Shown: positions 12,801 to 50,575 of the stretch, in pieces
Layout of the letters: the number at the start of each line of letters is the position of its first letter
How positions within the stretch are numbered: the stretch's first letter is position 1
DNA from: Alphaproteobacteria bacterium
GTDB lineage: Bacteria; Pseudomonadota; Alphaproteobacteria; UBA7887
Length of the DNA stretch: 64,000 nt
NCBI GenBank assembly: GCA_965214495.1
Contig: OZ243958.1
Location: 2,338,831-2,402,830, forward strand
Direction of reading: 5' to 3'
Notes under the pieces: generated by a model
Database searches by the model: none
What the model was told of the DNA's origin: nothing
Seen by the model: the letters and a program-made list of their open reading frames with translations, nothing else
Translations under genes and position numbers: made by a program

Positions 12801-15800
12801 CGCCGAAGCGGGTGACGCGGCTCGAACTGTCCGGGTTGGATCTGAGCGGGCGCATCCCTTCGGAGTTGGGGCGGCTGAGCCGGCTCGTGATGTTGAACCT
12901 GAGCCGCAACCGGCTCACCGGCGGCATCCCGCCGGCATTGGGCGGACTGGACAAGCTCGAATCGCTTTTTCTCATGCGCAACTGGCTCACCGGCCCGGTG
13001 CCTCCCGAACTGGGGGCGTTGTCCGCTCTGGAGCGCCTGGTTCTCTCCTTCAACGCCTTGAGCGGCTCGATTCCGCCGGAACTGGGGAAGCTGCCGCATC
13101 TCAGGGAGTTGTGGCTGAAGCACAACCGCCTGACCGGCCCCGTGCCGCCGGAACTTGAAGGGCTGGACAATCTGGTCGTGCTGCGTCTCTCCGGCAACGA
13201 CCTGGACCGCCCCTACCCGCGGCGTCTTTTCAGGATCGCCGACCACGACCTCTTTCGCGACGGTCTGCGCCGCGGCCAGCCGCGAGGCGATGCGGGGGCG
13301 GCGGAGACGGCGGGCCGCCGGGAACCGGAGAGCGGCCCGCTTTGTCGTCCGGGTTCCGGAGGCGCCTCCGGCCTGGATGCCGACTGCGGCCTCCTGCTTG
13401 CGAACAGGGACATGCTGGCCGGCGGCGCGCCGCTCAACTGGAGCGAGCAGGTCCCCATCGACTTCTGGCGGGGCGTCACTGTCGGCGGCTCGCCGAAGCG
13501 CGTGACCGCCCTGGAATTGCCGCACGCGGGACTGGACGGGCGCCTGTTCGCGGCGCTCGGCGAATTGAACGGCCTCGTCGCCCTGGACCTGAGCGATAAC
13601 CGGCTCACCGGCCCCGCGCCGCCGGAACTGGAAAGGCTGGACAAGCTGGCCTTCCTGCGCCTCGCCGGCAACAATCTGGACCGGCCCTTCCCGCCGGCGC
13701 TCCGCAGGATTGCCGACCATGACCTGGACATGCCGGATTTCTGCCGGCCGCAGGCGATCGGTCCGGGCCTGCTCGCCGACTGCGCCCTCTTGTTGTCGGC
13801 AAGGGACACGCTCGCTGGCGATGCGCCGCTCAACTGGCGCCGCGATGCGCCGGTGGACGACTGGCAGGGGGTCGCCGTGGACCGTTCGCGCGGCCGGGTG
13901 GCGGCGCTGGACCTGACGCAGATGGGGTTGAACGGGCGCATTCCCGCGGAGCTGGGGCGGCTTGCCGGGCTCGTTTCGCTGCGCCTCAGCCGCAACCGGC
14001 TCGCCGGCGGCATCCCGCCCGAGCTCGGCAAGCTCGCCGGCCTGCGCGAGCTGGCCCTGGACGGCAACCTCCTGGCCGGCCCCGCGCCGCCGGAACTCGG
14101 CAAGCTGTCGAAGCTCATCGACCTGCGGCTGAACGGCAACCCCTTGACGGGCCCCACATCGGACCGCGGCCCGGACCTGCTCTGCCGGTCGTCGCTCGAA
14201 GGGCGCCTGCATGACGATTGCGCCCTGCTGCTGGAGATCCGGGACGAGCTGGCCGGCGATGTCGAACTGAACTGGAGCGAGGCGGTCCCGATCGACTATT
14301 GGCGGGGCGTTGCGATCGGCCTTGCCGCGGCCGCCGGCAAGGCCGGGGAAGGGACGCGCGTCATCGCCCTGGACCTGTCGCATATGGGGCTGAACGGGCG
14401 GATTCCGGCAAGGCTTGCGGCTCTGGACGCCCTTGCCGTCCTGCGTCTCGGCGATAACCGGCTTGCGGGGTCCATCCCGCCGGAACTGGGCGTCCTGGCC
14501 GGGCTGCGGACGCTGACCCTGGAGAACAACGCGCTGACAGGCAAGATCCCGCCGGAACTGGGCGCGTTGAAGGCGCTCGTTTCGCTGCGCCTCGGCGGTA
14601 ACGAACTCGCCGGCCGCACGCGGCAATTCGCCACCCTGGCCAACCTGCGCGTGCTCGCGCTGGAAAACAACCTGCTGACGGGCAATATCCATCCGCGGCT
14701 TGGCGGCCTTGAGCATCTGGAAGAACTGCTGCTGGAGAACAATCGCCTGCACGGAAAGATCCCCAGGGAACTCCACCGGTTGTCCCGCCTCGCGGTCCTC
14801 CGCCTGGGCGGCAACGCCCTTGCAGGCTGCATCGGGCGCGGCGCGGGTGCGGCGCGGGTGCGGCGCAACGACCTCGCTTCCGCCGACCTGCTCTGCGAAT
14901 CGCCGCCCTGGTCCAAGCCGGGCCTGTTCGACGATGGCGCGAGCCTGATGCGCCTGCGCGACATCCTTGCCGGCAATGCGGTGCTGGACTGGAGCTACGA
15001 GCGGCCCGTTGCGTCCTGGGAGGGCGTCACCATCGGAAACAGCGGCCGCGTCGCCGCACTGGACCTGCAGGACAGGAACCTGACCGGGCGGATCCCCGCG
15101 GAATTGGGCGAACTGCGCCATCTCCGGCGGCTGAGGCTCGACGGCAACCGTCTCACCGGCCCCATCCCCCCCGAACTGGGGAAACTGACACGGCTGGCCA
15201 TGCTGTCGCTGGAGGGCAACCGCCTGACAGGCGCCATCCCGCCGGAGGTCGCCAATCTGCCGAATCTCAGGCAATTATGGTTGGCCGACAACCGGCTCAC
15301 CGGTTCCATCCCGTTCGAATGGGCCCGTGTCCGGGGTGTCTCCCTGGCCGTCGCCGGCAACGACCTGGACAGCTGCATGGCGTGGGAACTGCGCAGCCTG
15401 CGCAGCAGCGATATCGATCACGGCACCGTCTGCACTTTCTTTATGAATCGCAGACCGTTCCTTTGGAGGCTCGGTTTTGAGAAGGCCATGGAGGCGCCCG
15501 TCTTCGGCCATGGCTTCTGGGCGCTGAAATATCTGGAAGGCGCTCCCCTCACCCATAGCGGCTTGCTGCCGGATCCTCACAATCTGTATATAAACTTGCT
15601 GGGAGAGGCCGGTATCGTCCCTCTGCTACTGTTTCTGTCCGCCATCGTCTTGCTTCTGCGCACACAATGGGTCACGCCGAAGTCGCTTGCCCGGGATGCG
15701 GCAGTGGCTTGGGTCATCGTCATCGTCCTGTATTGCATGACCTTCGCGCATCTGTTCGGCAACAAAGCATTCATGCTTATGGCCGGGTTGAGCGTCGCGA

Positions 15801-15847
15801 TAGGGGCGGTGCGGAATGCCGGAGACCGACGCCCTGAGAAAGCGTGA
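9815..15847 (+). CDS. giant O-antigen ligase/polymerase-family (Wzy_C/WaaL-like) membrane protein with a ~1550-aa periplasmic insertion of nine plant-type LRR modules
   Basis: The N-terminal ~300 aa are polytopic and carry the first Wzy_C half (...FTNPNDAGLVACMTAALAAALL...GTASRTALVVLGALAVLFLLL). The C-terminal ~160 aa carry the second half (RPFLWRLGFEKAMEAPVFGHGFWALKYLEGAPLTHSGLLPDPHNLYINLLGEAGIVPLLLFL, i.e. the R...FGxG...HNxYLxxLxExGixGlllfl signature) plus further TM helices. Between them lie nine modules of D-C-x-x-L-L-x-x-[KR]-[DE]-x-L-A-G-D-x-x-L-N-W...W-[QR]-G-V-T...GRV caps followed by 24-residue LxxLxxLxLxxNxLTGxIPPELGx repeats. TTG/ATG start uncertain. Confidence 0.8.
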   Translation: MILFRHTASLVRRTESLQAALTAVAFWTLAAIALAGLRDLHLWGMPQVVGVTARVTMACVAVLAGLAGIRCLADRPKSGLRASVLGAIGGMPGMLLIGAVASYLAIGVAVMDDADWTPDMAATVRYAVLCLGVLVAAAVGGRAMLERVGADRLLRGVLVVLIGCCALILASPVLRDLGVLAPYRIPFRLTGAFTNPNDAGLVACMTAALAAALLTNGGPRGLGWLGLAAGVAAALGTASRTALVVLGALAVLFLLLNLRSRPRVLVATGVVLAGIAGFVGLVGFSGGLSEWSRLRSGATQEGSLLCNPSPTDRRDCAVLLAVRDTLAGDIALNWSRALPVERWQGVTTAGPEGRVTELRLAGLGLNGRIPPELGRLDRLESLSLQRNRLTGGIPPELGDLASLHHLNLGFNALTGAVPPELAKPRDLWRLRLNHNRLTGPLPAALGDLGLSVLRLRGNDFDSIPPGLAAADSDWADAQPCLPPAPMNRALLDDCTALLAAKEALAGDVPLNWRAELPVGKWQGVTAGGPEGAVTGLDLGNRGLNGRIPPELGRLKRLRTLNLARNRLTGPIPPELGQLTDLRALALDRNALTGAVPAELEQLPGLASLWLRENRFTGPVPSALFDVPEHDLGHFLYCLPPPAPGLPLFDDCALLLAVKETLAGDAPLNWRAALPVGLWQGVTLGGPQGRVAGLGLRRKGLDGRIPPQLGKLEDLEWLDLADNRLTGPVPPQLGKLEGLKWLDLADNRLTGPVPPEWETLIRLDGLLLGGNSLAGPVPPPLLDIPEHDLGHLLFCFPPLLAGSALLEDCERLLAAKGALAGDARLNWRRALPIGEWQGVTTGGPQGRVVALELPRMRLNGHIPAALGGLAGLRALELDANALTGAIPPELGKLADLEALGLAVNALTGPVPPELGKLPHLRELRLGGNRLTGSLPPGLRAAAVGGASCPAAPADNPALRADCAVLLAARDILAGDERLNWSEHVPIDSWQGVTLGGSPKRVTRLELSGLDLSGRIPSELGRLSRLVMLNLSRNRLTGGIPPALGGLDKLESLFLMRNWLTGPVPPELGALSALERLVLSFNALSGSIPPELGKLPHLRELWLKHNRLTGPVPPELEGLDNLVVLRLSGNDLDRPYPRRLFRIADHDLFRDGLRRGQPRGDAGAAETAGRREPESGPLCRPGSGGASGLDADCGLLLANRDMLAGGAPLNWSEQVPIDFWRGVTVGGSPKRVTALELPHAGLDGRLFAALGELNGLVALDLSDNRLTGPAPPELERLDKLAFLRLAGNNLDRPFPPALRRIADHDLDMPDFCRPQAIGPGLLADCALLLSARDTLAGDAPLNWRRDAPVDDWQGVAVDRSRGRVAALDLTQMGLNGRIPAELGRLAGLVSLRLSRNRLAGGIPPELGKLAGLRELALDGNLLAGPAPPELGKLSKLIDLRLNGNPLTGPTSDRGPDLLCRSSLEGRLHDDCALLLEIRDELAGDVELNWSEAVPIDYWRGVAIGLAAAAGKAGEGTRVIALDLSHMGLNGRIPARLAALDALAVLRLGDNRLAGSIPPELGVLAGLRTLTLENNALTGKIPPELGALKALVSLRLGGNELAGRTRQFATLANLRVLALENNLLTGNIHPRLGGLEHLEELLLENNRLHGKIPRELHRLSRLAVLRLGGNALAGCIGRGAGAARVRRNDLASADLLCESPPWSKPGLFDDGASLMRLRDILAGNAVLDWSYERPVASWEGVTIGNSGRVAALDLQDRNLTGRIPAELGELRHLRRLRLDGNRLTGPIPPELGKLTRLAMLSLEGNRLTGAIPPEVANLPNLRQLWLADNRLTGSIPFEWARVRGVSLAVAGNDLDSCMAWELRSLRSSDIDHGTVCTFFMNRRPFLWRLGFEKAMEAPVFGHGFWALKYLEGAPLTHSGLLPDPHNLYINLLGEAGIVPLLLFLSAIVLLLRTQWVTPKSLARDAAVAWVIVIVLYCMTFAHLFGNKAFMLMAGLSVAIGAVRNAGDRRPEKA
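10757..15470 (+). repeat. intragenic array of nine tandem LRR modules (~400-700 bp each, diverged at DNA level, with near-identical 72-bp sub-repeats e.g. 11946-12089)
   Basis: Periodic protein motifs and repeated DNA strings, e.g. cggctcaccggcccggttccgccg recurring. Mirror ORFs on the opposite strand are by-products. Confidence 0.8.
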
Positions 15848-15850
15848 CCA

Positions 15851-17101
15851 TTGACCGGGAACAAGCTCCATGTTGGCTTCGCGCTGACCAACCTGAACGG
15901 CGGCGGCGCGGAGCGCGTCACACTCGACCTTGCGGCGGCACTCATCGCGCGCGGACACCGGGCAGACCTGGTCATCCCAAGCCTCGCGGGAGACTACCGG
16001 GCCGCGATTCCCCGCGGCGCGCGGCTGTATCGGGGGCGGTTTCCTCACACCGACAGGACGTTCCTGCGGGAGGTTCGCCGGGCGGGTGTCGAAGTGGAAG
16101 CGATGACCGTCAACCCATTCGGAGTCGCGCGGAGTTGGCTGGTCCTCGCCTGGAAACACCTTGGCATACGGGTGCAGCGCAAGCGTTCCCACTATGCTTC
16201 GGTCTATGTTTTGAACCGTTACCTCCGCGAAGCGTGTCCCGATGTGCTGGTATCGGGGTCGCGGGGCGCCAACGCCGCCGCGGTCTGCGCCACGGAGTTG
16301 ACGCGCCGGGCGGTTCCCGTGGTGGTCACGGTGCATAACAACATTGCCGCCGCTTATGAACCAGAATGGCTGGCCGCCGCCCGGAGTCTCTATCCGCTGG
16401 CCGACGCGGTGGTGGCGGTGTCCAAGGGCGCGGCGGAGTCTGTGCGACGGTCTGTGGGCGTGGACGCCGGGAGTATTCACACTATCTACAACCCCATCCC
16501 CGCTGACGGCATATGGCGCCTGGCGCAGGAGGAAGTCACACACCCCTGGTTTGCGGGCGGCGAGCCGCCGGTGATTCTGAGCGTCGGGCGTGAGGCGCCC
16601 CAGAAGGACTACCCCACCCTGGTGGAGGCGTTTGTGATAGCGAGACGCAAGGCGGCCGCACGGCTGGTTATCCTCGGCAAGCTCTCGGCACCCTACCGGG
16701 AAAAGCTCAAGTCCTTGGCGCGGGGCCATGGCGCGGAGGAAGACCTCGGTTTCATGGACTTCGACGAGAACCCGTTCCGCTACATGCGGCGGGCGGCGCT
16801 CCTTGCGCTCTCCTCGCGCTGGGAGGGCCTGCCGACGGTGATCCTGGAGGCGCTGGCCTGCGGCACGCCGGTGGTCAGCACCGACACGCCCTACGGCCCG
16901 CGCGAGATCCTTGGGCAGTGGGGCGAGTTGCCGCCGGTGGGCGACGCACCGGCGCTGGCGCGGGCGCTGGTCGCGACGCTGCGCGGCGAGCACCCACCGG
17001 AGGAAGCCTTGCGCGCGCGCGCCGCCGAGTTCTCCCCCGAGAAGGCCGCCGACGCCTACGAAGCACTATTCCGAAAGCTGGCGAGGGGGCGAGCACGGTG
17101 A
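15851..17101 (+). CDS. family 4 (GT-B, RfaB-like) glycosyltransferase, tandem paralogue 1
   Basis: TTG start 3 nt after the giant gene's stop. Carries the GT4 EX7E-type C-terminal domain (RWEGLPTVILEALACGTPVVSTD). ~416 aa. Confidence 0.9.
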   Translation: MTGNKLHVGFALTNLNGGGAERVTLDLAAALIARGHRADLVIPSLAGDYRAAIPRGARLYRGRFPHTDRTFLREVRRAGVEVEAMTVNPFGVARSWLVLAWKHLGIRVQRKRSHYASVYVLNRYLREACPDVLVSGSRGANAAAVCATELTRRAVPVVVTVHNNIAAAYEPEWLAAARSLYPLADAVVAVSKGAAESVRRSVGVDAGSIHTIYNPIPADGIWRLAQEEVTHPWFAGGEPPVILSVGREAPQKDYPTLVEAFVIARRKAAARLVILGKLSAPYREKLKSLARGHGAEEDLGFMDFDENPFRYMRRAALLALSSRWEGLPTVILEALACGTPVVSTDTPYGPREILGQWGELPPVGDAPALARALVATLRGEHPPEEALRARAAEFSPEKAADAYEALFRKLARGRAR

Positions 17102-18357
17102 GATCGGATAGACTCCAAGTCTGCATCACGGTAACCAGTCTGGCCGGCGGCGGAGTAGAGCGCAACATTCTCCGTCTGGCACGGTCACTCATCGAACGAG
17201 GACATCGGGTGGACTTGGTGATCCCCCGGTTCGCAGGAGACTACCTGGCGGCGATACCCGGTGAAATGCGTATCTGGCGGGCGCGGATGCCCGGCACCGA
17301 TAGGGCGTTCTTGCGAAAGGTCCGGCGGGCAGGAATCGAGGTGGAGGCGATGACCGTCAACCCCGTCGGCGCTGCGTGTGCCTGGCTGGCTCTCGCCCGG
17401 AAGCATCCCGGGATACCGGTCATACGCGGCAGCGGCATGCGCTCCATCTATCCCTACGCCCATGTTCTGGCTCGCTACCTTCGCGAGGAACGGCCCGACG
17501 TGCTGGTGTCGGCGCATATGGGCCCCAACGCCGTTGCGGTCTGCGCCGCCGAACTGACGGACCGGGCCGTTTCGACGGTGATCACTGTGCGCAATAACGT
17601 CGCCGCCGGCTATGCGCCGCATTGGTTGGCAGCGGCCCGGACGCTCTATCCGCTTGCCGACGCCGTGGTGTCGGTGTCCAGGGGTGTGGCGGAGTCTGTG
17701 CGGCGGTTCGTGGGCATGGATGCCGACCGTGTCCACACCATCTACCACCCCATCCCTGCAGACAGCATATGGCGCCTGGCGCAGGAGGAAGTCACGCACC
17801 CCTGGTTCGCGGGCGGCGAGCCGCCGGTGATTCTGAGTGTCGGGCGCGAGGCGTTGCAGAAAGATCGCCCCACGTTGGTGAAGGCGTTCGGTTTGGCGCG
17901 GCGCGAGGTGAATGCGCGGCTGGTGATCCTCGGCAAGCTGTCGGCCGCCTACCGGGAAAGGCTGCGGTCCCTGGCGCGGAGCCATGGCGCAGCCGAGGAC
18001 CTGGGCTTCGTGGACTTCGACGAGAACCCGTTCCGCTACATGCGGCGGGCGGCGCTCTTTGCGCTGTCCTCGCGCTGGGAGGGCCTGCCGACGGTGGTCA
18101 TCGAGGCGCTGGCCTGCGGCACGCCGGTGGTCAGCACCGATGCGCCCTACGGCCCGCGCGAGATCCTTGGGGGGTGGGGCGGGTTGCCGCCGGTGGGCGA
18201 CGCGCCGGCGCTGGCGCGGGCGCTGGTTGCGACGCTGCGCGGCGAGCACCCGCCGGAAGAAGCCTTGCGTGCGCGCGCCGCCGACTTTTCCGATGACAAG
18301 GCCACTGACGCCTACGAAGCGCTGTTCGAGAAGCTGGTGAGAGAGCGCGCGCGGTGA
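17098..18357 (+). CDS. family 4 glycosyltransferase, tandem paralogue 2
   Basis: GTG start overlaps the paralogue-1 stop (GTGA). The N-terminus VRSDRLQVCITVTSLAGGGVERNILRL parallels paralogues 1 and 3. Confidence 0.9.
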   Translation: MRSDRLQVCITVTSLAGGGVERNILRLARSLIERGHRVDLVIPRFAGDYLAAIPGEMRIWRARMPGTDRAFLRKVRRAGIEVEAMTVNPVGAACAWLALARKHPGIPVIRGSGMRSIYPYAHVLARYLREERPDVLVSAHMGPNAVAVCAAELTDRAVSTVITVRNNVAAGYAPHWLAAARTLYPLADAVVSVSRGVAESVRRFVGMDADRVHTIYHPIPADSIWRLAQEEVTHPWFAGGEPPVILSVGREALQKDRPTLVKAFGLARREVNARLVILGKLSAAYRERLRSLARSHGAAEDLGFVDFDENPFRYMRRAALFALSSRWEGLPTVVIEALACGTPVVSTDAPYGPREILGGWGGLPPVGDAPALARALVATLRGEHPPEEALRARAADFSDDKATDAYEALFEKLVRERAR

Positions 18358-19649
18358 GGCAGGACAAGCTTCAAGTCAGCTTCCTGCTGACCGGCATGAA
18401 CGGTGGCGGGGCGGAGCGCAGTATTCTCCGATTGGCCCGGTCGCTTATTGAGCGCGGGCACCGGGCAGATCTGGTGATCCCCAAATTCGCGGGAGACTAC
18501 CGGGCTGCGGTCCCCAGCGGAATGCGCGTCTGGCGGGCGCGGCTTCCCGGCACCGACAGGAATCTGCTGCGGGAGGTGCAGCGGGCGGGAACCGAGGTGA
18601 AGGCGATGACTGTCAACCCCATCGGTGTCGCCCGCACTTGGCTGGCTCTCGCCGGGAAAGGCTTCAACCTGCCCGTTCGAAGTCATCACCGCATCGCTGC
18701 GTATGCATACATGATCGCCACGTACGTTCGTGAGGCGCGTCCTGATGTGCTGGTGTCAGCGCTGCCGGGCGCCGACACCGCCGCTGTCTGCGCCGCGGCG
18801 TTGACGGACCGGGCCGTTCCTGTGGTGGTCACGGTGCGCATCAACATCGTCGCCGACTATACGCCGGAATGGCTGGCCGCTTGCCGAACCCTCTATCCGC
18901 GGGCCGATGCGGTGGTGACGATATCCCGAGGCGTGGGCGAGTCCGTGCGGCAATCGATGGGGGTGGATGCCGGGCGCGTTCGCACCATCTACAACGGCGT
19001 TCCTGTCGACAGCATACGACAGCTGGCGCAGGATGAAGTCACGCACCCGTGGTTCGCAGACGGCGAGCCGCCGGTGATCCTGAGCGTCGGGCGCGAGGCG
19101 TTGCAGAAAGATCACCCCACGTTGGTGAAGGCGTTCGGTTTGGCGCGGCGCGAGGTGAACGCGCGGCTGGTGATCCTCGGCAAGCTGTCGGCCGCCTACC
19201 GGGAAAGGCTCAAGTCCCTGGCGCGGAGCCATGGCGCGGAGGAGGACCTGGGCTTCGTGGACTTCGACGAGAACCCGTTCCGCTACATGCGGCGTGCGGC
19301 GCTCTTTGCGCTCTCCTCGCGCTGGGAGGGCCTGTCGATGGTGGTCATCGAGGCGCTGGCCTGCGGCACGCCGGTGGTCAGCACCGATGCGCCCTACGGC
19401 CCGCGCGAGATCCTGGGCGGGTGGGGCGACCTGCCGCCGGTGGGCGACGCGCCGGCGCTGGCGCGGGCGCTCGTCGCGACGCTGCGCGGCGAGCACCCGC
19501 CGGAGGAAGCCTTGCGCACGCGCGCCGCCGACTTTTCCGATGACAAGGCCGCCAACGCCTATGTCGCGCTGTTCCGGGAGCTGGTGCAGGAGCGCGCGGT
19601 GAAGCCGGATACACTTCCTGTCATTCCGGGAGAACCGGCGCAGCCATGA
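18354..19649 (+). CDS. family 4 glycosyltransferase, tandem paralogue 3
   Basis: GTG start overlaps the paralogue-2 stop. The C-terminal half is almost identical at DNA level to paralogue 2. Confidence 0.9.
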   Translation: MRQDKLQVSFLLTGMNGGGAERSILRLARSLIERGHRADLVIPKFAGDYRAAVPSGMRVWRARLPGTDRNLLREVQRAGTEVKAMTVNPIGVARTWLALAGKGFNLPVRSHHRIAAYAYMIATYVREARPDVLVSALPGADTAAVCAAALTDRAVPVVVTVRINIVADYTPEWLAACRTLYPRADAVVTISRGVGESVRQSMGVDAGRVRTIYNGVPVDSIRQLAQDEVTHPWFADGEPPVILSVGREALQKDHPTLVKAFGLARREVNARLVILGKLSAAYRERLKSLARSHGAEEDLGFVDFDENPFRYMRRAALFALSSRWEGLSMVVIEALACGTPVVSTDAPYGPREILGGWGDLPPVGDAPALARALVATLRGEHPPEEALRTRAADFSDDKAANAYVALFRELVQERAVKPDTLPVIPGEPAQP

Positions 19650-41646: not shown

Positions 41647-41664
41647 GCGAGGCGTCCGAGTGCG

Positions 41665-41700
41665 GGATCCCGGCGCGCGCGACGCCGCGCGCCGGGATCC
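41665..41700 (+). terminator. candidate intrinsic terminator hairpin after BI-1 gene
   Basis: Perfect 15-bp inverted repeat GGATCCCGGCGCGCG / CGCGCGCCGGGATCC with a 6-nt loop, 19 nt after the stop. Followed by TCGACCTTT. Confidence 0.45.
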
Positions 41701-41787
41701 TCGACCTTTCGGAGGCTGCGGGTATCATGCCGTCCGAAGTCGTGTGACACGACCGGATCGGGCCCGGCCTCGGGAGAGAAATCGACC

Positions 41788-42249
41788 GTGACGATCATGG
41801 TTCTCGATACGCTCAAGGCCGCCAAGGTGCTCACCGCGGCCGGCGCGGCTCAACCTCTGGCCGAAGCCATCGTATCGACGGTGAACGACGCCATCTCCGA
41901 CAACGTCGCCACCAAGGGCGATATCGAAAAACTCCAGGGCAGTATCGAGAATCTCGAAGGCGATATCGAAGACCTCCGAGGCGAGGTCAAAGATATCAGG
42001 AGCGATATCAAAGATCTTCGCGATAACGGTGCCACCAAAGCCGATATCGATAGCCTGCGCGAAACCAGCGCCACCAAGGCCGATATCGACAACCTTCGCG
42101 AAACCAGCGCCACCAAAGCCGATATCTCCAACCTCGAAGCGCGCATGTATCGCGCGCTGTGGATGCAGGCGGGCGGCATCGTCGCGGCGATCACCGCGCT
42201 GGCAGGCATCGCCGTGGCATTCGCCAATCTGATCGCCGGAACGGTTTGA
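41788..42249 (+). CDS. DUF1640-family coiled-coil protein with C-terminal transmembrane anchor
   Basis: MTIMVLDTLKAAKVLTAAGAAQPLAEAIVS..., ATKADI(D/S)xLRETS repeated three times (39-bp DNA repeats), hydrophobic tail GGIVAAITALAGIAVAFANLIAG. Confidence 0.7.
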   Translation: MTIMVLDTLKAAKVLTAAGAAQPLAEAIVSTVNDAISDNVATKGDIEKLQGSIENLEGDIEDLRGEVKDIRSDIKDLRDNGATKADIDSLRETSATKADIDNLRETSATKADISNLEARMYRALWMQAGGIVAAITALAGIAVAFANLIAGTV

Positions 42250-42383
42250 TCCCAGGCGCGTCCGACGCCTGAACGCTACCGGCGCACTGGCGCTCGCCGG
42301 AAGCGAAACGCCGCGCGGGCTTGCCGGCCCTCGCCACCGCCGCCACAATGACAGCGTCGCAGCGATCGTCGCCGGGAGGCGTC

Positions 42384-44282
42384 ATGGCCGTTCGCTACCA
42401 TGAAGAATATGCCCGCGCGTTGACCGATCCACGGGCGTTCTGGGCCGAACAGGCGGAGCGCATCGACTGGGTGGAGCGCTGGGACCGGATACTGGACGAC
42501 CGCAATCCGCCATTCTACCGGTGGTTCGCCGGCGCAAAGGTCAACACCTGCCACAACGCGCTCGACCGCCACGTCGACTCCGGTCGCGCGGAACAAACCG
42601 CGTTGATCTATGACAGCCCCGTCACCGGAACCGTGCGCCGCTATACCTATCGCGAACTCCGCGACGCGGTGGCGCTGTTCGCCGGTGCGCTGGCGGCGCT
42701 CGGTGTCGTCCGCGGCGACCGCGTGCTGATCTACATGCCTATGGTGCCGCAGGCGGTGATCGCCATGCTTGCCTGTGCGCGCCTTGGAGCGATTCATTCG
42801 GTAGTGTTCGGCGGGTTCGCGGCGCGCGAGCTGGCCGTCCGCATCGACGACGCCGAACCGCGCGTGATCGTCGCCGGCAGTTGCGGCATCGAACCCGGCC
42901 GGATCGTCGCCTACAAGCCGTTGCTGGACGAAGCGATCGAGCTCGCCGCACACAAGCCCGAACGCTGCATCGTCCTTCAGCGCGAGCAGGCCGAGGCGAC
43001 GCTGGTTCCCGGGCGCGACCTGAGCTGGGAGGAGGCCGAGGCCGGCGCCGCACCGCATCCCTGCATCCCCGTCGCCGCCACCGACCCGCTCTATATCCTC
43101 TACACGTCGGGCACCACCGGCGTGCCGAAGGGCGTGGTGCGCGACAATGGCGGATACCTCGTCGCGCTGGCCTATTCGATGCGCGCGATCTACGACGCCG
43201 AACCCGGCGACGTGTTCTGGTCGGCGAGCGACGTGGGATGGGTGGTCGGCCACTCCTACATCGTCTATGCGCCGCTGATCCACGGCTGCGCGACAGTGCT
43301 CTACGAGGGCAAGCCGGTCGGAACGCCCGATGCAGGGGCGTTCTGGCGGGTGATTGCGCAGCACGGCGTCAAAACGCTGTTCACCGCACCGACGGCGTTC
43401 CGCGCCATCCGCCGCGAAGACCCGGTCGCCGAATTGCTTGCGGGCCACGACCTCGGACGCTTCGAGTCGCTGTTCCTCGCCGGCGAACGGCTCGATCCCG
43501 ACACCCTCGCCTGGGCGCAACGCGTTTTGAACGTCCCGGTCATCGACCACTGGTGGCAGACCGAAACCGGCTGGCCGATCTGCGCCGATTGCGCCGGGCT
43601 GGAGCTGATGCCCGTCAAGCCTGGCTCGGCGACCGTGCCGGTGCCGGGTTTTCGCGTGCGCGCGCTCGACGAATCCGGCGGCGAGGTCGAGCGCGGGAAG
43701 ATCGGTGCGCTAACCATCGAACTGCCGATGCCGCCGGGCTGCCTGTCCACCCTGTGGCGGAACGACGACGGATATATCGACTCCTATCTCGGCGAGTTCC
43801 CCGGCCACTACCAGTCGGGCGACGCCGGCTATATCGACGAAGACGGCTATGTTTTCGTCATGTCGCGCACCGATGACATCATCAATGTCGCGGGCCACCG
43901 CCTTTCGACCGGCGGCATGGAAGAGGTGCTCGCACAGCACCCCGATGTTGCCGAATGCGCGGTGATCGGCGCCGCCGATCCGCTCAAGGGCGAACTGCCT
44001 GTGGGGATGATCGTTTTGCAATCCGGCGTTGACCGGCCACACGCCGAGATCGCGGGAGAGGTCGTACAATTGGTGCGCCGGCACATTGGCCCGGTTGCCG
44101 CGTTCCGCACCGCGGTGGTCGTCAAACGGCTGCCGAAGACGCGCTCGGGCAAGATCCTGCGCGGCACACTGAAGAAGATCGCGGACGGCAGTGACTGGAC
44201 CATGCCGGCCACGGTCGATGACCCGGCGATCTTCGGCGAAATCGCCGACGACCTGCGAAACGCCGGCTATCCGCGCGCGTGA
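42384..44282 (+). CDS. propionate--CoA ligase / acetyl-CoA synthetase-family AMP-forming ligase
   Basis: MAVRYHEEYARALTDPRAFWAEQAERIDWV... (PrpE-type N-terminus), YTSGTTGVPKG AMP-binding motif, C-terminal ...SGKILRG. Confidence 0.85.
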   Translation: MAVRYHEEYARALTDPRAFWAEQAERIDWVERWDRILDDRNPPFYRWFAGAKVNTCHNALDRHVDSGRAEQTALIYDSPVTGTVRRYTYRELRDAVALFAGALAALGVVRGDRVLIYMPMVPQAVIAMLACARLGAIHSVVFGGFAARELAVRIDDAEPRVIVAGSCGIEPGRIVAYKPLLDEAIELAAHKPERCIVLQREQAEATLVPGRDLSWEEAEAGAAPHPCIPVAATDPLYILYTSGTTGVPKGVVRDNGGYLVALAYSMRAIYDAEPGDVFWSASDVGWVVGHSYIVYAPLIHGCATVLYEGKPVGTPDAGAFWRVIAQHGVKTLFTAPTAFRAIRREDPVAELLAGHDLGRFESLFLAGERLDPDTLAWAQRVLNVPVIDHWWQTETGWPICADCAGLELMPVKPGSATVPVPGFRVRALDESGGEVERGKIGALTIELPMPPGCLSTLWRNDDGYIDSYLGEFPGHYQSGDAGYIDEDGYVFVMSRTDDIINVAGHRLSTGGMEEVLAQHPDVAECAVIGAADPLKGELPVGMIVLQSGVDRPHAEIAGEVVQLVRRHIGPVAAFRTAVVVKRLPKTRSGKILRGTLKKIADGSDWTMPATVDDPAIFGEIADDLRNAGYPRA

Positions 44283-44701
44283 GCGCTGCGACCGGCCCGC
44301 GCAACCTGCGCGTTTACGGCGTTCTGATGCGCGCCGGCCGCGCCCTGATGGCCGCCGAGCGCGTGATGGCCCGTGACGTCCTCAAATTCCCCGGCGGCGC
44401 GGTCGAGGCCGGCGAGACTCCGGAAACCGCGCTGGTCCGCGAGTTCGACGAGGAAACCGGACTGGCGATTACCGTCACGGCGTTGTTGCACGCGCCGGGC
44501 ACGCTGTTCAGCCCGTGGACGTTGCAGCCCTACACGCCGCTGTTCTACGCTGTCGGCGCGACCGGCGCGCCGCGGGCACCTGCGCATGAGGCCTTGATTC
44601 TGTCTTTCATGACCCCCGCGGAAGCGCTCGCCGCCAGCCGCATGGCCGACCCCGACCGACTCGCGCTGGCTCGGGCCGCGGCACTGGGAGAACGCTCATG
44701 A
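44279..44701 (+). CDS. NUDIX hydrolase
   Basis: GTG overlaps the ligase stop. NUDIX box GGAVEAGETPETALVREFDEETGL. Confidence 0.8.
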   Translation: MSAATGPRNLRVYGVLMRAGRALMAAERVMARDVLKFPGGAVEAGETPETALVREFDEETGLAITVTALLHAPGTLFSPWTLQPYTPLFYAVGATGAPRAPAHEALILSFMTPAEALAASRMADPDRLALARAAALGERS

Positions 44702-44722
44702 CCTTGGACGTGCTGATCCGCG
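44686..44722. repeat. left copy of imperfect direct repeat (NUDIX stop/amidohydrolase start: GGGAGAACGCTCATGACCTTGGACGTGCTGATCCGCG)
   Basis: 35/37 identical to 48833-48869. Encodes a stub MTLDVLIRG... of the amidohydrolase N-terminus. Confidence 0.7.
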
Positions 44723-45009
44723 GCGCCCGCGGTGTTCGTCTCATCCAACGTCAGGGACTACGCCGTCGATGACAAGACAACCGTCACGGACGATATCCGA
44801 CCGGAGTTTGAGGCCGTCGGCCCCTCGAGTACACCCCCAACATGGGTGCGGCCAGATCTCTCCTGGGACTGTAGAGCCGTTTCCCGGCTGACACTCGGCG
44901 TAAAAGCTTCGGATCCGGATTGCGCGGCATCGCTCGCGCTGGGAATGTCGCGGCTGCCGGTTTACGGAAGAACGTCGCGAAGCAGGTGTCCAAGGTAAGG
45001 AATTGAACG

Positions 45010-45171
45010 ATGGCCAAAGGCGGTAACAAAGGTGGTGGTGGCAAGAGCGGGAGTAGAAAAGGCGGCGGCGGCAAGGGCGGCGCCCGCGGAGGCGGTGGAA
45101 ATCCGAATTTCCCGTCCCGAACGGGCCGGCCGTCGGGCAGCGGCAGAGGGAACAATCCGCCGAAGAAGTAG
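45010..45171 (+). CDS. small glycine-rich basic protein (53 aa; KGG-repeat-like, intrinsically disordered)
   Basis: Not in the ORF track (<60 aa). Strong SD TAAGGAA 7 nt upstream of ATG. MAKGGNKGGGGKSGSRKGGGGKGGARGGGGNPNFPSRTGRPSGSGRGNNPPKK*. Confidence 0.45.
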   Translation: MAKGGNKGGGGKSGSRKGGGGKGGARGGGGNPNFPSRTGRPSGSGRGNNPPKK

Positions 45172-45679
45172 AAGGCGAAAATCCTGCGGCCTATCCGGTG
45201 ACGTCGACGAGTTCCACGCGAGCCTGTCTGTGCGCCAGCGGCGGGCGGGCTTCCGACAGGTCGGTGATCGGATAGGTCCGTGAAAAAAACGGGTGGATGC
45301 GCGCGGTGTCGGGCATGGGGAGGAATGCGTGCTTCTCGTCGACGCTGTCCTCGCGGCACAGACCGAGACGGGGCAACGCGCCACGGCTGTCGCGGGACGG
45401 CGCTTGCATCGCTTGGTCCAACCCGGTCGCGCCCGTAGCCGCGTCGACCGCGCCGTCGTCGGGCGGCACGGGAAGCGTGAACACGCGCGCCGGGCCGTCC
45501 CGTCTCGGCGGGACCTGCGCGTTCTCCCGGAGCCCAAGATGACCCGGTGCTACCACTCGTATTTGGGCGCCGGTTCAGGAGAAGACACGTGTTCGTTGAA
45601 CGTTATGGCCGGCTCCACGATATCGCCCAGACGGTGATCCAGGAACTGACCCCCAACGGGGTCGAAGTGGACACCTCAA

Positions 45680-46940
45680 AAAGCGTGGTGTTCTGGATGT
45701 TGACGTGATTCATTCGAGATAGCAGGCTGGGAGGATGGTTTTGATGCGACAGTTTGGGCTTTACTGGAGCATTTGGGGAGGCTGTCGTCGACCGACGACC
45801 CGCTCGAGGCGCTGGCGAAGGTGGTGGACTTTGAAGTTTTTCGCGCGCCGCTGGAGGCAGCGTTGGGCTATTCGGACGGCTCCAGGGGCGGTCGCCCGCC
45901 TTACGATCCGGTGGTGATGTTCAAAATCCTGATCCTGGCAGCCCGGCACATGGTGAGCGACGAACAGATGGAGTTCCTGATCCGCGACCGCCTGAGCTGG
46001 CTTCGCTTCCTGGGTTTCGACCTGGGAGCACGGACCCCGGATCGCAATACCATCTGGACTTTCCGCGAGCGCCTGGTTCGGGCCGGGGCGACGGATGCCT
46101 TGTTCGCCACCTTCGATCGCGAGCTTCGCCGTGCGGGCTATCTGGCGATGGGCGGCCAGATCGTCGATGCGACGCTGGTGTCGGCGCCGAGGCAGCGCCA
46201 CACGGAGCCGGAGAAGGAAGTGATCGGGTCGGGCAAGAGCAGCGACGAGATTTGGGTGGACCAACCGGCGAAGGCGGCGCAGAAGGACACGCAAGCGCGC
46301 TGGACGGTGAAGACCGGGCGGCGCCGGAACCCGCCCGGATCGCGGCAACGCCAGCCCGATATCGCGATCCCGGTGTTCGGCTACAAGAACCACATCGTCA
46401 TCGACCGCAGATACGGCTTCATCCGCAGCTTCGCGGTGACCGATGCCGCCTGCCATGACGGTCAGATGCTGCGTCATTTGATTACCAGCGACAATCTGGC
46501 CGCCGGTGTGTGGGCTGACAGTGCTTATCGCTCCCGGGCCAACGAGGCCTGGCTGGCGGACAGGGGGCGGGTCTCCCACATCCACCGCAAGAAGCCCAGG
46601 GGCCGACCCATGCCCGGAACAACCGCTCGGGCCAACGCTCGCAAGTCGGCTGTCCGCGCGCAGGTGGAGCATGTCTTCGCCCACCGGAAGGAGCGCATGG
46701 GCCTGTTCATCCGCACCATCGGCATCGAGCGGGCCAGGACCCGGATTGGATTGGCCAACCTCGTCTGCAACATTCAGCGTCTGCTGTTCCACGAGCGCAA
46801 AGCCGTCATGGCATGAGTCTGCGCGGATAGCCGCAAAGCACCCCCCTCTCACACGACTATTGCGATCCAGTCAGCCCATCAACACCCTGAAATACGCCCA
46901 AACACCCAACAAGACCCCGAAAACCGCCTAAATCCACTCC
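45680..46940 (+). mobile_element. IS5-family insertion sequence (approximate ends)
   Basis: Transposase ORF plus candidate imperfect terminal inverted repeats (GTTCTGGATGTTGACG near 45683-45700 versus the reverse complement of CCGCCTAAATCCAC near 46924-46937). Confidence 0.45.
45773..46816 (+). CDS. IS5-family DDE transposase
   Basis: ...GRPPYDPVVMFKILILAARHMVSDEQMEFLIRDRLSWLRFLGFDL...FGYKNHIVIDRRYGFIRSFAVTDAACHDGQML...VWADSAYRS... TTG start. The expected MRQ-type N-terminus (ATG at 45744) is out of frame, so the N-terminus may be frameshifted. Confidence 0.8.
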   Translation: MGRLSSTDDPLEALAKVVDFEVFRAPLEAALGYSDGSRGGRPPYDPVVMFKILILAARHMVSDEQMEFLIRDRLSWLRFLGFDLGARTPDRNTIWTFRERLVRAGATDALFATFDRELRRAGYLAMGGQIVDATLVSAPRQRHTEPEKEVIGSGKSSDEIWVDQPAKAAQKDTQARWTVKTGRRRNPPGSRQRQPDIAIPVFGYKNHIVIDRRYGFIRSFAVTDAACHDGQMLRHLITSDNLAAGVWADSAYRSRANEAWLADRGRVSHIHRKKPRGRPMPGTTARANARKSAVRAQVEHVFAHRKERMGLFIRTIGIERARTRIGLANLVCNIQRLLFHERKAVMA

Positions 46941-47750
46941 TCACCGCATGTTATTGGAGGTGTCCGAGTGACTGGCGATGATTTCGCGAAATAATTCGTT
47001 GGCGGCATCCAGCAGAGCGAAAGTGTCGTCACCGCCGGGCTCGGCGATGTTCTTCTCGGAGGCAGCGAATTCAGTTTCCATGAACCGATCAAGCATGCCG
47101 ATACGAGGTCCGTCACCGATGTCGCTCCGCCTAGCCTTGCGTGCCACCAGTTCATCGATGACCTGACCGAGTTCGTGACTCAGTTCAAGCCCGGAGCGCA
47201 GGCCCGGGAGGTCCATTGGCGGTACATCTGCGCGCGTACGCAGCCAGAAAAGGGCGAGCGCAGGGCGCAGGGCGTAGAAGTACCTCTTCAGGCGCACCGT
47301 TTCACGCCCCTTGATTGCTTCCTCGTATTGTGAACGGCCAAGATGAAGGTAGTGATACCGGGCCGGACGATGGAATCGGGTACATGCCGAGAGATCGCGA
47401 AGCCTCGCTATACAAGCCGGGCTCTCCCGATAGCGAATCGGCGAAGTCAGCCATTCGGTGAGCACCGGATTGGCCTTGAGCAGTAGTTGTAACGCCTTCC
47501 TGATATCCCATCCGTTGACGTCGAGGGCATCTTCAATGGGGTATTCGATCACATCGCGGCGTACGTCGATAGAGAGATACCAATCACGCGGCCGCGCATA
47601 GAGGAAGCGCACATCGTAATCGCTGTCGGGAGACGGAAACCCCCACGCGCGGCTGCCGGACTCCACAGCAAGAAGGATACGTACGGACTCGCTGTGCTCA
47701 ATCTCGGAAAGTTTGTCGTCGATGCGACGGCGGATACGCGGATCGATCAC
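46941..47750 (-). CDS. COG3541/PF10127-type predicted nucleotidyltransferase
   Basis: ...ILLAVESGSRAWGFPSPDSDYDVRFLYARP... (GS-x-AYG-x-SDxD motif of the family). 269 aa, lower GC than the flanks. Confidence 0.7.
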   Translation of the reverse strand: MIDPRIRRRIDDKLSEIEHSESVRILLAVESGSRAWGFPSPDSDYDVRFLYARPRDWYLSIDVRRDVIEYPIEDALDVNGWDIRKALQLLLKANPVLTEWLTSPIRYRESPACIARLRDLSACTRFHRPARYHYLHLGRSQYEEAIKGRETVRLKRYFYALRPALALFWLRTRADVPPMDLPGLRSGLELSHELGQVIDELVARKARRSDIGDGPRIGMLDRFMETEFAASEKNIAEPGGDDTFALLDAANELFREIIASHSDTSNNMR

Positions 47751-47775
47751 GGGACAGCCTCGGTGAATACGTCGC

Positions 47776-48480
47776 TCATACCAAACACAATTCCAACAAA
47801 CAAATATAGTGATGTTTCGGGATCAGCGCGAGGGAGCGACGGCATAACCGCGCTGTGTCATGGTCGTGATGACGCTGGGCCGGCCGGTCAGCCATTGCCA
47901 TTCCATCCAGCATGCCTCCTTCAGGGCCGCAACATCCTTGAACACCCGACTCGCGAAGCGGTTCGATTTTAGAAACAGAACGATCTGCTCCATCGAGTTG
48001 CGTTCCGGGCTGTAGGGCACCAGGTGCGCGTTTACGGACGCCGTGTTCGCTCTGTCCGCCACATGCGCGACGCCAACGCCCCGCGCACGCGGCGATGAAC
48101 AGACAGACATAACCGTAGCGATGATCGCGCGCGATCTGGAGGCGCTGCTTGCGATGCGCCCACACTCGCGTCGTCATTCCCTTCTGCCCGATGCGCGCCT
48201 CGTCCTGAAACCAGACCTCGACCGGTCCCGCCGGCGCCGCCGGACTAAGCGCCGACCCCAGCAACTCCTCAAACGCCCGCTGTCTTGGGGTTGATCGGTC
48301 GCCACGAGACAAAGCGAAACTCCGCCCTTCGGAGCATTATGCGGACGCCGTTCTCCTTATGGATCACCCCGAAGGCCTCCTCGACCTTCCGCACGCGCCA
48401 GGGCGTCACCCCGTGCCGCTCACGGCTCGGACCCGCCTCGGTCCACGCGCCGATCCCGCCGATTCGCGCCGCTGCCAACC
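47776..48480 (-). pseudogene. IS630-family transposase, frameshifted/truncated
   Basis: Pieces in three frames: ...IMLRRAEFRFVSWRPINPK... (N-terminal region), VEVWFQDEARIGQKGMTTRVWAHRKQRL (DDE region), ...YSPERNSMEQIVLFLKSNRFASRVF... (C-terminal DDE-E region). Confidence 0.6.
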
Positions 48481-48542
48481 GACCCGCGCTAACGTAGCGC
48501 GGGCGGCGGCAACTCCAGGTCCACGCCGTTGGCCAGTCCAAA

Positions 48543-48710
48543 CTACGAGCAGGCGATGCTCGCGAGGTTTCGGGAATCCGGCCTGCGCCCGACGGCATCG
48601 CGCAGAATCGCCCCCGCCTCTTCTTCCATGGGACGACCGTGGTCTGCCGCCTGGACGTGGAGCCTCCTCTTCGTGTCGTCGTCGAGGTTGCGGATCGTGA
48701 TGCCCGCCAT
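48543..48710 (-). pseudogene. FitA/VapB-like ribbon-helix-helix antitoxin, C-terminally frameshifted; no cognate PIN toxin present
   Basis: MAGITIRNLDDDTKRRLHVQAADHGRPMEEEAGAILRDAV... then a premature stop. The expected ...GVDLELPP... tail continues out of frame, and the downstream sequence is IS630 debris. Confidence 0.5.
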
Positions 48711-48832
48711 GACGATGTCCTCCGTTCGTCCATCAGCCCAATTTAGGCATCGGCTGTGATGCTATCCAGACACCGTTCGGCGCGGGCGTTGCGGGCCTGC
48801 GCGGCTCTGCTCTACGCTGTCGCCGCAGCCTC

Positions 48833-48869
48833 GGGAGAACGCTCATGACTCTGGACGTGCTGATCCGCG
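48833..48869. repeat. right copy of imperfect direct repeat bounding the 4.1-kb insertion
   Basis: GGGAGAACGCTCATGACTCTGGACGTGCTGATCCGCG, preceded by a compressed copy of the NUDIX 3' end (…LYAVAAASGERS*). Confidence 0.7.
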
Positions 48870-50575
48870 ACGCGACCGTGGTCGATGGCTCCGGCGCGCC
48901 GCGCTACCGCGCCGATGTCGGGGTCGCCGGCGGGCGCATCGCCGAAATCGGCCGCATCCGCGCCCCGGCGGCGCAGACGATCGACGCGGAAGGGCTGATC
49001 CTCGCGCCGGGCTTCATCGACGGACACACCCACATGGACGCTCAGGTCGCGTGGGATCCACTCGGTAGCTGCTCGTGCTGGCACGGCGTCACCAGTGTGA
49101 TCATGGGCAATTGCGGCTTCGCCCTGGCCCCCTGCCGCCCGGACGAGCGCGAGTGGATCGCCCGCTGCCTGGAAGCGGTCGAGGATATTCCCGTCGCCGC
49201 CATGATGGCGGGCATCGACTGGACCTGGGAGAGCTTCCCGGACTATCTCGCGACCGTCGAGCGCCTGCCGAAGGGGATCAACTACGGCGCTTATCTCGGG
49301 CATTCCGCGCTGCGCATGTATGTGATGGGCGAACGAGCGCTCGAGGAAACCGCGACCGACGACGATCTCGCCGCCATGCGCTCCGCTGTCGGCGAGGCGC
49401 TGCGCGCCGGCGCGATGGGGCTTTCGACATCGCGCGCGACCACCCACGTCACACCCGACGGAACCCCGGTGCCGAGCCGCATCGCCGACTGGCGCGAGAT
49501 CGACGCGCTGGTGGGCGCGATGGCGGAACTGAACGCCGGAATCTTCCAGATCGGCCCCGACATTTCCGGCGGCGAGGCGCAGCGCGCGTTTCTCGACCGT
49601 CTGCGCACGGTCGCGCTCGACAGCGGACGCCCCGTCATGTTCGGCACGATCTCCACACGCCAGGGCGCCGACCCGCTGCCATGGGAATATCAACTGGACT
49701 ACATCGACGAAACGGTCGCCGCCGGCGGGCGCATGTTCGGCCAGACCACGACGCGGCCGATCAACGCGGTGTTCTCGCTCAAGTCCTATCTGCCCTTCGA
49801 CGGCCTGCCGGAGTGGCGGGAACTGCGCGCGGAACCGCTCGAGCGCCAGAAACACCGCCTGCGCGACCCCGAAACCCGCGCGCGCCTGGTCGCCGCGGAA
49901 CGCGCGATGAAACCGCTCGGCGGCGACGAATTCCAGGGCGGCGGCGCCGCGACCACCGACCCGCGCAAACCGGATTACGGGAATCTCTACGCGTTGTGCG
50001 GCACGGACTGGAACGATCCGACCGTCGCCGAGCTTGCCGAACGACGCGGCGTGGACCCGGTCGGCGTAATGATCGACCTGATGCTCGACGACGAGAACCA
50101 GATTTTCGTCCAGCCGCTGGTCAACGAAACGCCGGCCGCCGTGCACGGAATGCTGCGGCACCCGCGCACTCTCGCCACCTTCTCCGATTCCGGCGCCCAT
50201 GTCTGCCAGGAGATGGGCGCATCGCTGCAAACGCACATGCTGAGCTACTGGGTGCGCGACAAGCAGGCGTTCACGCTGGAAGAAGCGGTGCGCATGTTGA
50301 CCTTCGACAACGCGCTGGCCTGGGAATTGCCCGACCGCGGGCTGGTGCGCCGCGGCTACGCCGCCGATCTGGTTCTGTTCGAGGAGGCGCGAATAAAACC
50401 GCGCCTGCCGACCGTGGAAAACGACCTGCCCGGCGGTGCACGCCGGCTGGTGCAGAAGGCCGACGGCATCGCCGCGACGCTGGTCAACGGCGTCGTGACC
50501 CAGACCTGGGGCGAAGCGACCGGCGAAACGCCGGGTGACCTGCTGAAGGGTCCGTGGCTCCGGGATATCGCCTGA
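48845..50575 (+). CDS. D-aminoacylase-family amidohydrolase (N-acyl-D-amino-acid deacylase-like)
   Basis: MTLDVLIRDATVVDGSGAP...ILAPGFIDGHTHMD... metal-dependent amidohydrolase fold. 576 aa. Confidence 0.9.
   Translation: MTLDVLIRDATVVDGSGAPRYRADVGVAGGRIAEIGRIRAPAAQTIDAEGLILAPGFIDGHTHMDAQVAWDPLGSCSCWHGVTSVIMGNCGFALAPCRPDEREWIARCLEAVEDIPVAAMMAGIDWTWESFPDYLATVERLPKGINYGAYLGHSALRMYVMGERALEETATDDDLAAMRSAVGEALRAGAMGLSTSRATTHVTPDGTPVPSRIADWREIDALVGAMAELNAGIFQIGPDISGGEAQRAFLDRLRTVALDSGRPVMFGTISTRQGADPLPWEYQLDYIDETVAAGGRMFGQTTTRPINAVFSLKSYLPFDGLPEWRELRAEPLERQKHRLRDPETRARLVAAERAMKPLGGDEFQGGGAATTDPRKPDYGNLYALCGTDWNDPTVAELAERRGVDPVGVMIDLMLDDENQIFVQPLVNETPAAVHGMLRHPRTLATFSDSGAHVCQEMGASLQTHMLSYWVRDKQAFTLEEAVRMLTFDNALAWELPDRGLVRRGYAADLVLFEEARIKPRLPTVENDLPGGARRLVQKADGIAATLVNGVVTQTWGEATGETPGDLLKGPWLRDIA

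Follow-up and report, generated by a model that had tools for sequence, protein, structure and literature searches.

How does an operon come to be opened at the point where two of its genes overlap, with both genes left intact and the junction between them present twice? We asked this of a stretch of 64,000 nucleotides (nt) from an Alphaproteobacteria bacterium (lineage UBA7887; assembly GCA_965214495.1, contig OZ243958.1, positions 2,338,831 to 2,402,830 of the forward strand), referred to here as the window, in which about 4.1 kb of DNA separates a NUDIX hydrolase gene from the amidohydrolase gene that would once have followed it directly in an operon headed by a prpE-like ligase gene. An earlier, sequence-only reading had seen in those 4.1 kb a single mosaic mobile element that brought a homologous copy of the target with it. 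We consider it probable on balance, if no better than that, that the repeats are instead a feature of the locus, a recurrent hotspot whose duplicated junction served as a landing pad filled piecemeal, and that they are not duplications made by the cargo now present.

The duplication itself can be followed base by base. On the left, the intact NUDIX gene (44279..44701, + strand; PF00293) ends in a TGA stop that overlaps the ATG at 44698. The left junction copy (44675..44735, +) holds the last 8 NUDIX codons, a Shine-Dalgarno sequence (GGGAGAA), the ATGA overlap and, at 44698-44735, a dead amidohydrolase start of about 10–13 codons, whose alignment reaches about +38 nt once a 2-nt gap is permitted. 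The open reading frame (ORF) from this ATG translates as MTLDVLIRGARGVRLIQRQGLRRR and a stop, that is, MTLDVLIRGA followed by unrelated codons, which bears out the truncated amidohydrolase start seen from the sequence alone. On the right, the genuine, intact amidohydrolase gene (48845..50575, +; Amidohydro_3, N-acyl-D-amino-acid deacylase-like; PF07969, E = 4e-36) is preceded by a second, diverged copy (48775..48844, +), in which a decayed relic of the NUDIX 3' end without 120 bp, containing the blocks GTTGCGG (48788-48794) and TCTACGCTGTCGC (48811-48823), is followed by a Shine-Dalgarno sequence (GGGAGAA, 48833-48839) and ATGA.

A repeat search paired 44675-44726 with 48822-48873 (52 nt, 87% identical, offset 4147) and 44514-44559 with 48781-48826 (46 nt, 78% identical, offset 4267). 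Because the two offsets differ, the right copy is the 3' end of the NUDIX gene with 120 bp deleted, joined to the real amidohydrolase start. The junction core, GGGAGAACGCTCATGAC..TGGACGTGCTGATCCGCG, is identical at 35/37 positions, and alignment of the two copies scores 74, against a mean of 15 and a maximum of 28 for shuffled sequences (0/2000 reach 74); the relic aligned to the window's own NUDIX gene scores 44 (shuffle mean 20, maximum 38; 0/2000). Judged by these alignments, the two copies are truly homologous, as the sequence-only reading had supposed; two repetitive gene regions apart, the window contains no other repeat of 40 nt or longer. The compressed NUDIX relic described in that reading was also found, with its 120-bp deletion, whereas the peptide given for it, LYAVAAASGERS and a stop, rests on the nucleotide text, read by eye over 48806-48847 in the NUDIX frame; the computed translation covered another frame.

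Comparison with relatives places this duplication in context. These are uncultured Alphaproteobacteria at about 80–85% identity, which turned up when genomes were scanned with the amidohydrolase and proteins were searched with NUDIX; exact-protein look-ups with both proteins and with the 100% identical P0001, and a metagenome scan with NUDIX, returned no conspecific genome, the metagenome scan yielding relatives at no more than 53% identity over most of their length. In relative L001, the two genes meet directly at an ATGA junction (...GGGAGAATGCTCATGACC...) and prpE, NUDIX and amidohydrolase run uninterrupted, which is the empty site that had been predicted and the arrangement that the window has lost. 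L100 also has a direct junction, with an amidohydrolase internally deleted to 42 codons. Elsewhere the junction is split: by a convergent gene for a lipoprotein of about 395 amino acids (aa) in L002, L107, L108 and L112, by a 325-bp gap without a gene in L101 and L102, and in L103 by a 277-aa ORF and a HIRAN gene, beyond which 100 nt of the amidohydrolase 5' end remain. In L116, NUDIX is followed by a stretch that by eye resembles an amidohydrolase 5' remnant, and then by other DNA; the stretch is in register, but its local score is not significant (508/2000 shuffles).

The window's cargo bears no resemblance to that of these relatives. Set against related genomes, as had been proposed as a check on the one-element idea, the junction holds unrelated cargo or none, not one exotic element. 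Since the same junction is split by unrelated cargo across genomes, it is a recurrent breakpoint, or hotspot, in this clade. Several further candidates at these loci were rejected: amidohydrolase 5' remnants after the NUDIX genes of L107, L002, L101 and L103 (442, 10 in the wrong register, 1198 and 234 of 2000 shuffles, respectively), a NUDIX relic upstream of the translocated amidohydrolase of L003 (not significant) and a remnant of the lipoprotein gene in the window's cargo, where the only match was to low-complexity GGC repeats. As for the lipoprotein gene itself, it is split by an in-frame stop in L002 (8400-9587, −), which is a pseudogene or a long-read assembly error, whereas L107 has it intact at 395 aa; a faint match to TbpB_B_D was seen in one copy.

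What the split loci share lies to the right of the cargo. Relatives that keep the amidohydrolase beyond a split junction carry the same NUDIX-derived block upstream of the gene, GTTGCGG-N16-TCTACGCTGTCGC, which is common to the window, the L002 group and the L101 group. Both parts of the block are invariant, the 16-nt spacer between them varies in sequence and is fixed in length, and no alignment is possible for the DNA farther upstream. With the relics of L002, L107 and L108, the window's relic shares 84% identity over 38 nt, and with that of L101, 78% over 46 nt. In L001 and L100, functional NUDIX coding sequence occupies the same position, and the functional NUDIX gene of L100 contains both blocks exactly. 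Because relatives with other cargo carry the same NUDIX-derived block, the repeat structure belongs to the locus and not to this cargo. The sequence-only reading was therefore right that the repeats are no short target-site duplication, being a duplicated junction, and probably wrong that the present cargo brought them.

The block could also be native to the amidohydrolase, a promoter or leader whose likeness to NUDIX is coincidental. Its hexamers are conserved and its spacer varies, as in a regulatory element, and neither in L002 nor in L101 does the relic show significant similarity to the genome's own NUDIX gene. Against this, the relic–NUDIX alignment in the window extends over 54 columns, reaching upstream of the conserved block and collinear with the junction copy, and matches NUDIX better than any of 2000 shuffles; L001 and L100 have NUDIX coding sequence at this very place, with both blocks inside the L100 gene; and more distant amidohydrolase loci have unrelated upstream regions. 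We regard a non-NUDIX origin as very improbable.

A regulatory role for a NUDIX-derived block is a separate matter. TTGCGG and TACGCT, 18 nt apart, may form a −35/−10 pair for the amidohydrolase, and the blocks would have been kept by selection because the gene is no longer coupled to the operon. Exaptation as a promoter would explain why two blocks stay invariant at fixed spacing where cargo and spacer have fully diverged. We therefore put forward, tentatively and as less probable than the hotspot itself, the idea that junction duplication recurs as a selectable route by which a coupled operon can take in foreign DNA with both genes preserved, in which a fragment of the NUDIX gene is exapted as the amidohydrolase promoter.

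The DNA between the repeats consists of at least four unrelated pieces, some nested, with an IS5 copy inside an RlaP gene and IS630 debris in place of vapC. GC content differs among the pieces (58% versus 65–70%) and is 56–61% at 46.6–48.2 kb versus 67–71% in the flanks, so the lower GC earlier attributed to the whole interval holds for only part of it and is clear just around RlaP. An IS5 with its own inverted repeats inside RlaP, IS630 fragments abutting an antitoxin gene and the differing GC together show that the cargo is composite. The description of this DNA as a junkyard of mobile pieces was apt: it is foreign or mobile junk, in which IS5, IS630, an antitoxin and foreign genes are all found, the first three of them dead or damaged.

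The IS5-family insertion sequence spans 1,297 bp (45669..46965, +), between terminal inverted repeats of 19 nt (45669-45687 versus 46947-46965; 79% complementary; GGACACCTC...) that resemble the ends of related copies (GGGCACCTCC...). Its transposase (45773-46816), a DUF772 and DDE_Tnp_1 protein (PF05598 and PF01609), matches NF033581 at 212 bits (cut-off 140), which confirms the IS5 assignment made from sequence, and shares 66–73% nucleotide identity with annotated IS5 copies on Sphingomonadaceae plasmids; within the insert, only the IS5 part matches plasmid DNA. The copies on pCADAB1 of Sphingomonas sp. ERG5 and pSWIT02 of Rhizorhabdus wittichii have the same two transposase domains and, like the window's copy, inverted repeats that start GG(A/G)CACC(T/C)CC. 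A 4-bp target duplication (ACCT) flanks the ERG5 copy, whereas the 4-mers flanking the window's copy, AAGT and GAGT, agree at only 3/4 positions. Unlike its plasmid relatives, the window's copy is frameshifted after codon 6, MRQFGL from the ATG at 45744 being out of frame with the remainder when compared with 358-aa references. It is probably defective, and the frameshift may be a sequencing error. The IS5 accounts for 1.3 kb of the 4.1 kb and is unrelated to the long flanking repeats.

This IS5 copy lies at the 3' end of an RlaP/COG3541 nucleotidyltransferase gene (46941..47750, −; GC 58.5%), an identification from sequence that the family match upholds (PF10127, 266.8 bits, E = 3e-79, residues 6-255 of 269). 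The end of the inserted IS5 supplies the last 8–9 codons and the stop, and the PF10127 domain is full-length, IS5-derived sequence replacing only the variable C-terminal tail. Homologues, of 255–283 aa and at best 75% identical, are located elsewhere in island-like contexts. Two ideas about this gene were set aside: a longer RlaP (299 aa) reconstructed across the IS5 is unsupported, homologues ending at about 260–283 with variable tails, and the GTGGTAG coupling of RlaP to an orphan ORF is probably accidental (GC 58% versus 70%). The closest relatives of RlaP (L117; P0137, P0140 and P0142) adjoin a type ISP restriction-modification enzyme, an AAA_15/AAA_21 ATPase, DUF4268 and IS630, and some homologues are fused to DUF429 (PF04250); such neighbourhoods may hint at an accessory role in defence or RNA repair.

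An IS630-family transposase survives at 47823..48478 (−) as remnants spread over at least three frames, recognised by NF033545, by weak DDE_3 and HTH_33 matches and by tblastn. The NF033545 matches (E = 1e-7 over model positions 126-191 and 3e-4 over 254-296) reach 31.5 and 20.2 bits where the cut-off is 100, and the HTH_32/33 transposase of L114 covers 48478-48284 and 48267-48046 in tblastn at E = 1e-27. The transposase is thus in pieces, as had been described, and with its coding remnant internally deleted, the sequence reads as a remnant and not as an element. Next to it lies a FitA/VapB-like ribbon-helix-helix antitoxin pseudogene (48489..48710, −; PF22513, 63.8 bits, cut-off 27). It had been called frameshifted, with its PIN toxin gone; the family and the loss of the toxin hold, whereas the damage is an in-frame stop after codon 55 (codon 56), behind which the usual C-terminus, FGLANGVDLELPP, continues in the same frame. 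No PIN toxin ORF is present beside the antitoxin, and the IS630 fragments start about 10 nt past its natural stop. The gene thus shares with VapBC/FitAB modules the N-terminal ribbon-helix-helix domain and a typical C-terminal tail and differs from them in its premature stop and in having IS630 debris where the PIN toxin gene belongs; the toxin–antitoxin module is dead.

The remaining part of the insert is a spacer of unassigned origin (44736..45668) with two ORFs, neither of which has a Pfam, NCBIfam or PADLOC match. The small Gly/Lys-rich gene that had been noticed there is present at 45010-45171 (+; 53 codons) behind a good ribosome-binding site. Its 8 weak relatives (E <1e-3), which have the motif NPN[FWY]PS[RT]TG.PSG.GRGNN.PKK at the C-terminus, in some of them as 2–4 repeats, place the protein in a small family without a name. 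The orphan ORF (45191-45556, −; 121 codons) matches only its own genome in the databases. The sole similarity of the spacer to the relatives' cargo is a low-complexity match of 37–38 nt in the Gly-rich region.

Could all this still have arrived in one step, as a single 4.1-kb mosaic element that integrated by a Campbell-type or site-specific reaction with its own diverged copy of the junction? The geometry fits single-crossover integration of a circle with about 250 bp of junction homology, the 40 nt nearest the junction are nearly identical between the copies and share window-specific substitutions, part of the insert is lower in GC, and L001 has an empty site. The contents point the other way. 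Among the main ORFs on both strands between 44.7 and 48.8 kb there is no integrase or recombinase family match and no unassigned stretch long enough for such a gene; no relaxase appears among the cargo matches; tRNA and Rfam scans of the locus found no tRNA and no RNA family; PADLOC found no defence system; and no circular form, replication or transfer functions or donor were found. Nor is the insert built like a composite transposon, having one IS5 and one IS630 remnant with no second copy of either in the 64-kb window. As candidate att-like sites, the repeats amount to a diverged duplication of more than 200 bp of host junction, one copy of which is common to genomes with other cargo or none. 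That copy also resembles L100 and not the window at two informative NUDIX positions, and the 120-bp deletion and the 77% identity of the distal part argue against a recent, clean event. For the present cargo, which is nested, unrelated debris, the one-element interpretation of the sequence-only reading finds no support, and we think a single-step integration rather unlikely.

A second alternative accepts the hotspot and moves the origin of the repeats elsewhere: the whole split allele, from left remnant to amidohydrolase, would have come from another lineage, exchanged by double homologous recombination within the core genes on either side. Such an integrase-independent mechanism has been proposed for hotspots (PMC5635113), and the repeats would then be inherited from the donor. 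Different cargo between the same flanking genes across genomes agrees with this, as does the break in synteny that immediately follows the amidohydrolase stop in the window. Against it, the amidohydrolase shows a flat 78–88% identity to L001, L002 and L101 in sliding windows, with no imported-looking segment, and raised recombination was not detected in the flanking genes. Window-specific substitutions are common to the NUDIX and amidohydrolase copies on the two sides of the insert, which implies long co-residence or gene conversion, and no candidate donor was found. We judge import of the allele quite improbable.

The age of the duplication bears on our preferred reading of a locus-bound, repeatedly used junction, and here two parts of the repeat disagree. 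In the 45-nt block region, the relic has L100-like states at both positions where the window's NUDIX gene is unique, and its identity is 35/43 to L100 versus 33/43 to the window's own gene; given these states, this part of the relic appears to predate recent changes in the window's NUDIX gene. The 120-bp deletion sits exactly between this old-looking part and a young-looking one, and the latter heads a series of observations that weigh against our reading. Around the start codon, the window's two copies agree at 37/40 nt, and both have GAC GTG (in Leu-Asp-Val), which occurs in no relative, the relatives having GAT/GAC CTG/CTC. The left remnant is non-coding and should have decayed if ancient, yet it is kept; together with the shared GAC GTG this indicates a young duplication or gene conversion. 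The evidence points to a duplication younger than the split of the window from L001 and L002, or to one whose proximal part was homogenised by gene conversion, and it may have been a window-specific event that coincided with the arrival of some of the cargo. In addition, when set against the NUDIX gene of the same genome, the relics of L002 and L101 reach marginal or no significance (91 and 541 of 2000 shuffles), and the left sides of L002, L107 and L101 have no significant amidohydrolase remnant in shuffle tests. Trees of prpE plus NUDIX and of the amidohydrolase form a near-trichotomy at about 17.5% nucleotide distance, from which one ancient split, with later reversion by repeat recombination, is indistinguishable from parallel splits. 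Finally, a scan for the sigma-70 consensus reported no promoter in the relic.

With these points in view, the history that we envision for the hotspot would run as follows. NUDIX and amidohydrolase would originally have been translationally coupled through the ATGA overlap in the prpE operon. About 250 bp spanning the junction, from about codon 75 of NUDIX to about codon 10–13 of the amidohydrolase, would then have been duplicated, whether as a small tandem duplication or by a duplicative or homology-driven insertion; a Campbell-type, homology-driven origin of this first duplication is possible. The left copy would have retained a complete NUDIX gene and the right copy the ribosome-binding site, start codon and probably promoter of the amidohydrolase, so that material between them would be dispensable, a neutral gap and a harmless landing pad. 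The low-GC RlaP segment, a vapBC-like pair and the small Gly-rich gene may have arrived first in this lineage. The next two steps are shown by the sequence: an IS630 element destroyed vapC and decayed, and an IS5-family element entered the 3' end of RlaP and later acquired its frameshift. The NUDIX relic on the right would meanwhile have decayed, losing 120 bp, except for the two conserved blocks that resemble −35/−10 elements.

The genes around the junction complete the picture. The first operon gene, for a prpE-like propionate/acetate-CoA ligase (42321..44282, +; PF00501, PF13193 and PF16177), matches NF007815 at E = 2e-225, yet under the model's cut-off, and is syntenic with L001, L002, L100, L101 and L103; NUDIX homologues of 75–85% identity adjoin prpE in relatives. 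Upstream, a window-specific insertion (41647-42372) lies between a Bax1-I gene and prpE, which are 20–70 nt apart in L002 and L100–L103, and contains a 153-codon ORF (41788-42249) with 39-nt (13-aa) tandem repeats (...ATKADID.LRE.S...). The amidohydrolase is 85% identical at the amino acid level to those of L001 and L002, and extends 4 residues further at the C-terminus than its counterparts in L002 and L101. In two relatives it is almost wholly deleted: in L100 (8468-8596) about 30 N-terminal and 12 C-terminal codons are fused in frame, and in L103 (9661-9763) about 100 nt of the 5' end are kept. The gene appears to be dispensable in this clade, and in several loci a second amidohydrolase paralogue, about 38–50% identical, lies 4–6 kb downstream. 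Synteny with all relatives stops at the amidohydrolase stop (50575); RecQ comes next in L100, L101, L103 and L107, and in the window a convergent short-chain dehydrogenase gene is followed by another gene, presumably for a PaaI-like thioesterase, as read from its translation. Farther away, the region 10700-15300 holds up to 16 diverged copies of units of 157–300 nt and is probably one giant repeat protein, and the region 15800-19000 holds three tandem units of about 1,250 bp at 70–77% identity.

For annotation, the consequence is that neither the 30 nt of amidohydrolase start behind NUDIX nor the LYAVAAASGERS relic is a gene, both being scars of a duplication, and that the IS5, IS630 and antitoxin genes at this locus are dead or damaged. 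Co-transcription of the amidohydrolase with prpE and NUDIX has probably ceased. More broadly, the locus offers a small example of a hotspot forming inside an operon, where a duplicated junction keeps the flanking genes intact and the neutral space between them gathers lineage-specific cargo. All of this is ordinary genome plasticity and leaves current understanding unchallenged; only the possible present role of the relic as promoter of the amidohydrolase is mildly novel, and coding sequence would in that case have been recycled as regulatory sequence.

Two known systems frame the locus. Campbell-type single-crossover integration leaves cargo between direct repeats of the homologous segment, and the geometry here is alike; unlike the product of such an event, the repeats here are unequal, with a 120-bp deletion and 77–92% identity, and one of them is common to genomes with other cargo. 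On a small scale, the locus also behaves like the integrase-independent hotspots of gene turnover between conserved core genes described by Oliveira, Touchon, Cury & Rocha in 2017 (PMC5635113). There, as here, unrelated accessory genes, insertion sequences and degraded elements lie between the same conserved genes, without an integrase or tRNA and with high turnover of cargo. That study compared strains of one species, whereas our comparison is between species or genera of uncultured Alphaproteobacteria. Unlike those hotspots, the one described here interrupts an operon where an ATGA overlap translationally couples two genes, and it is bounded by a duplicated junction.

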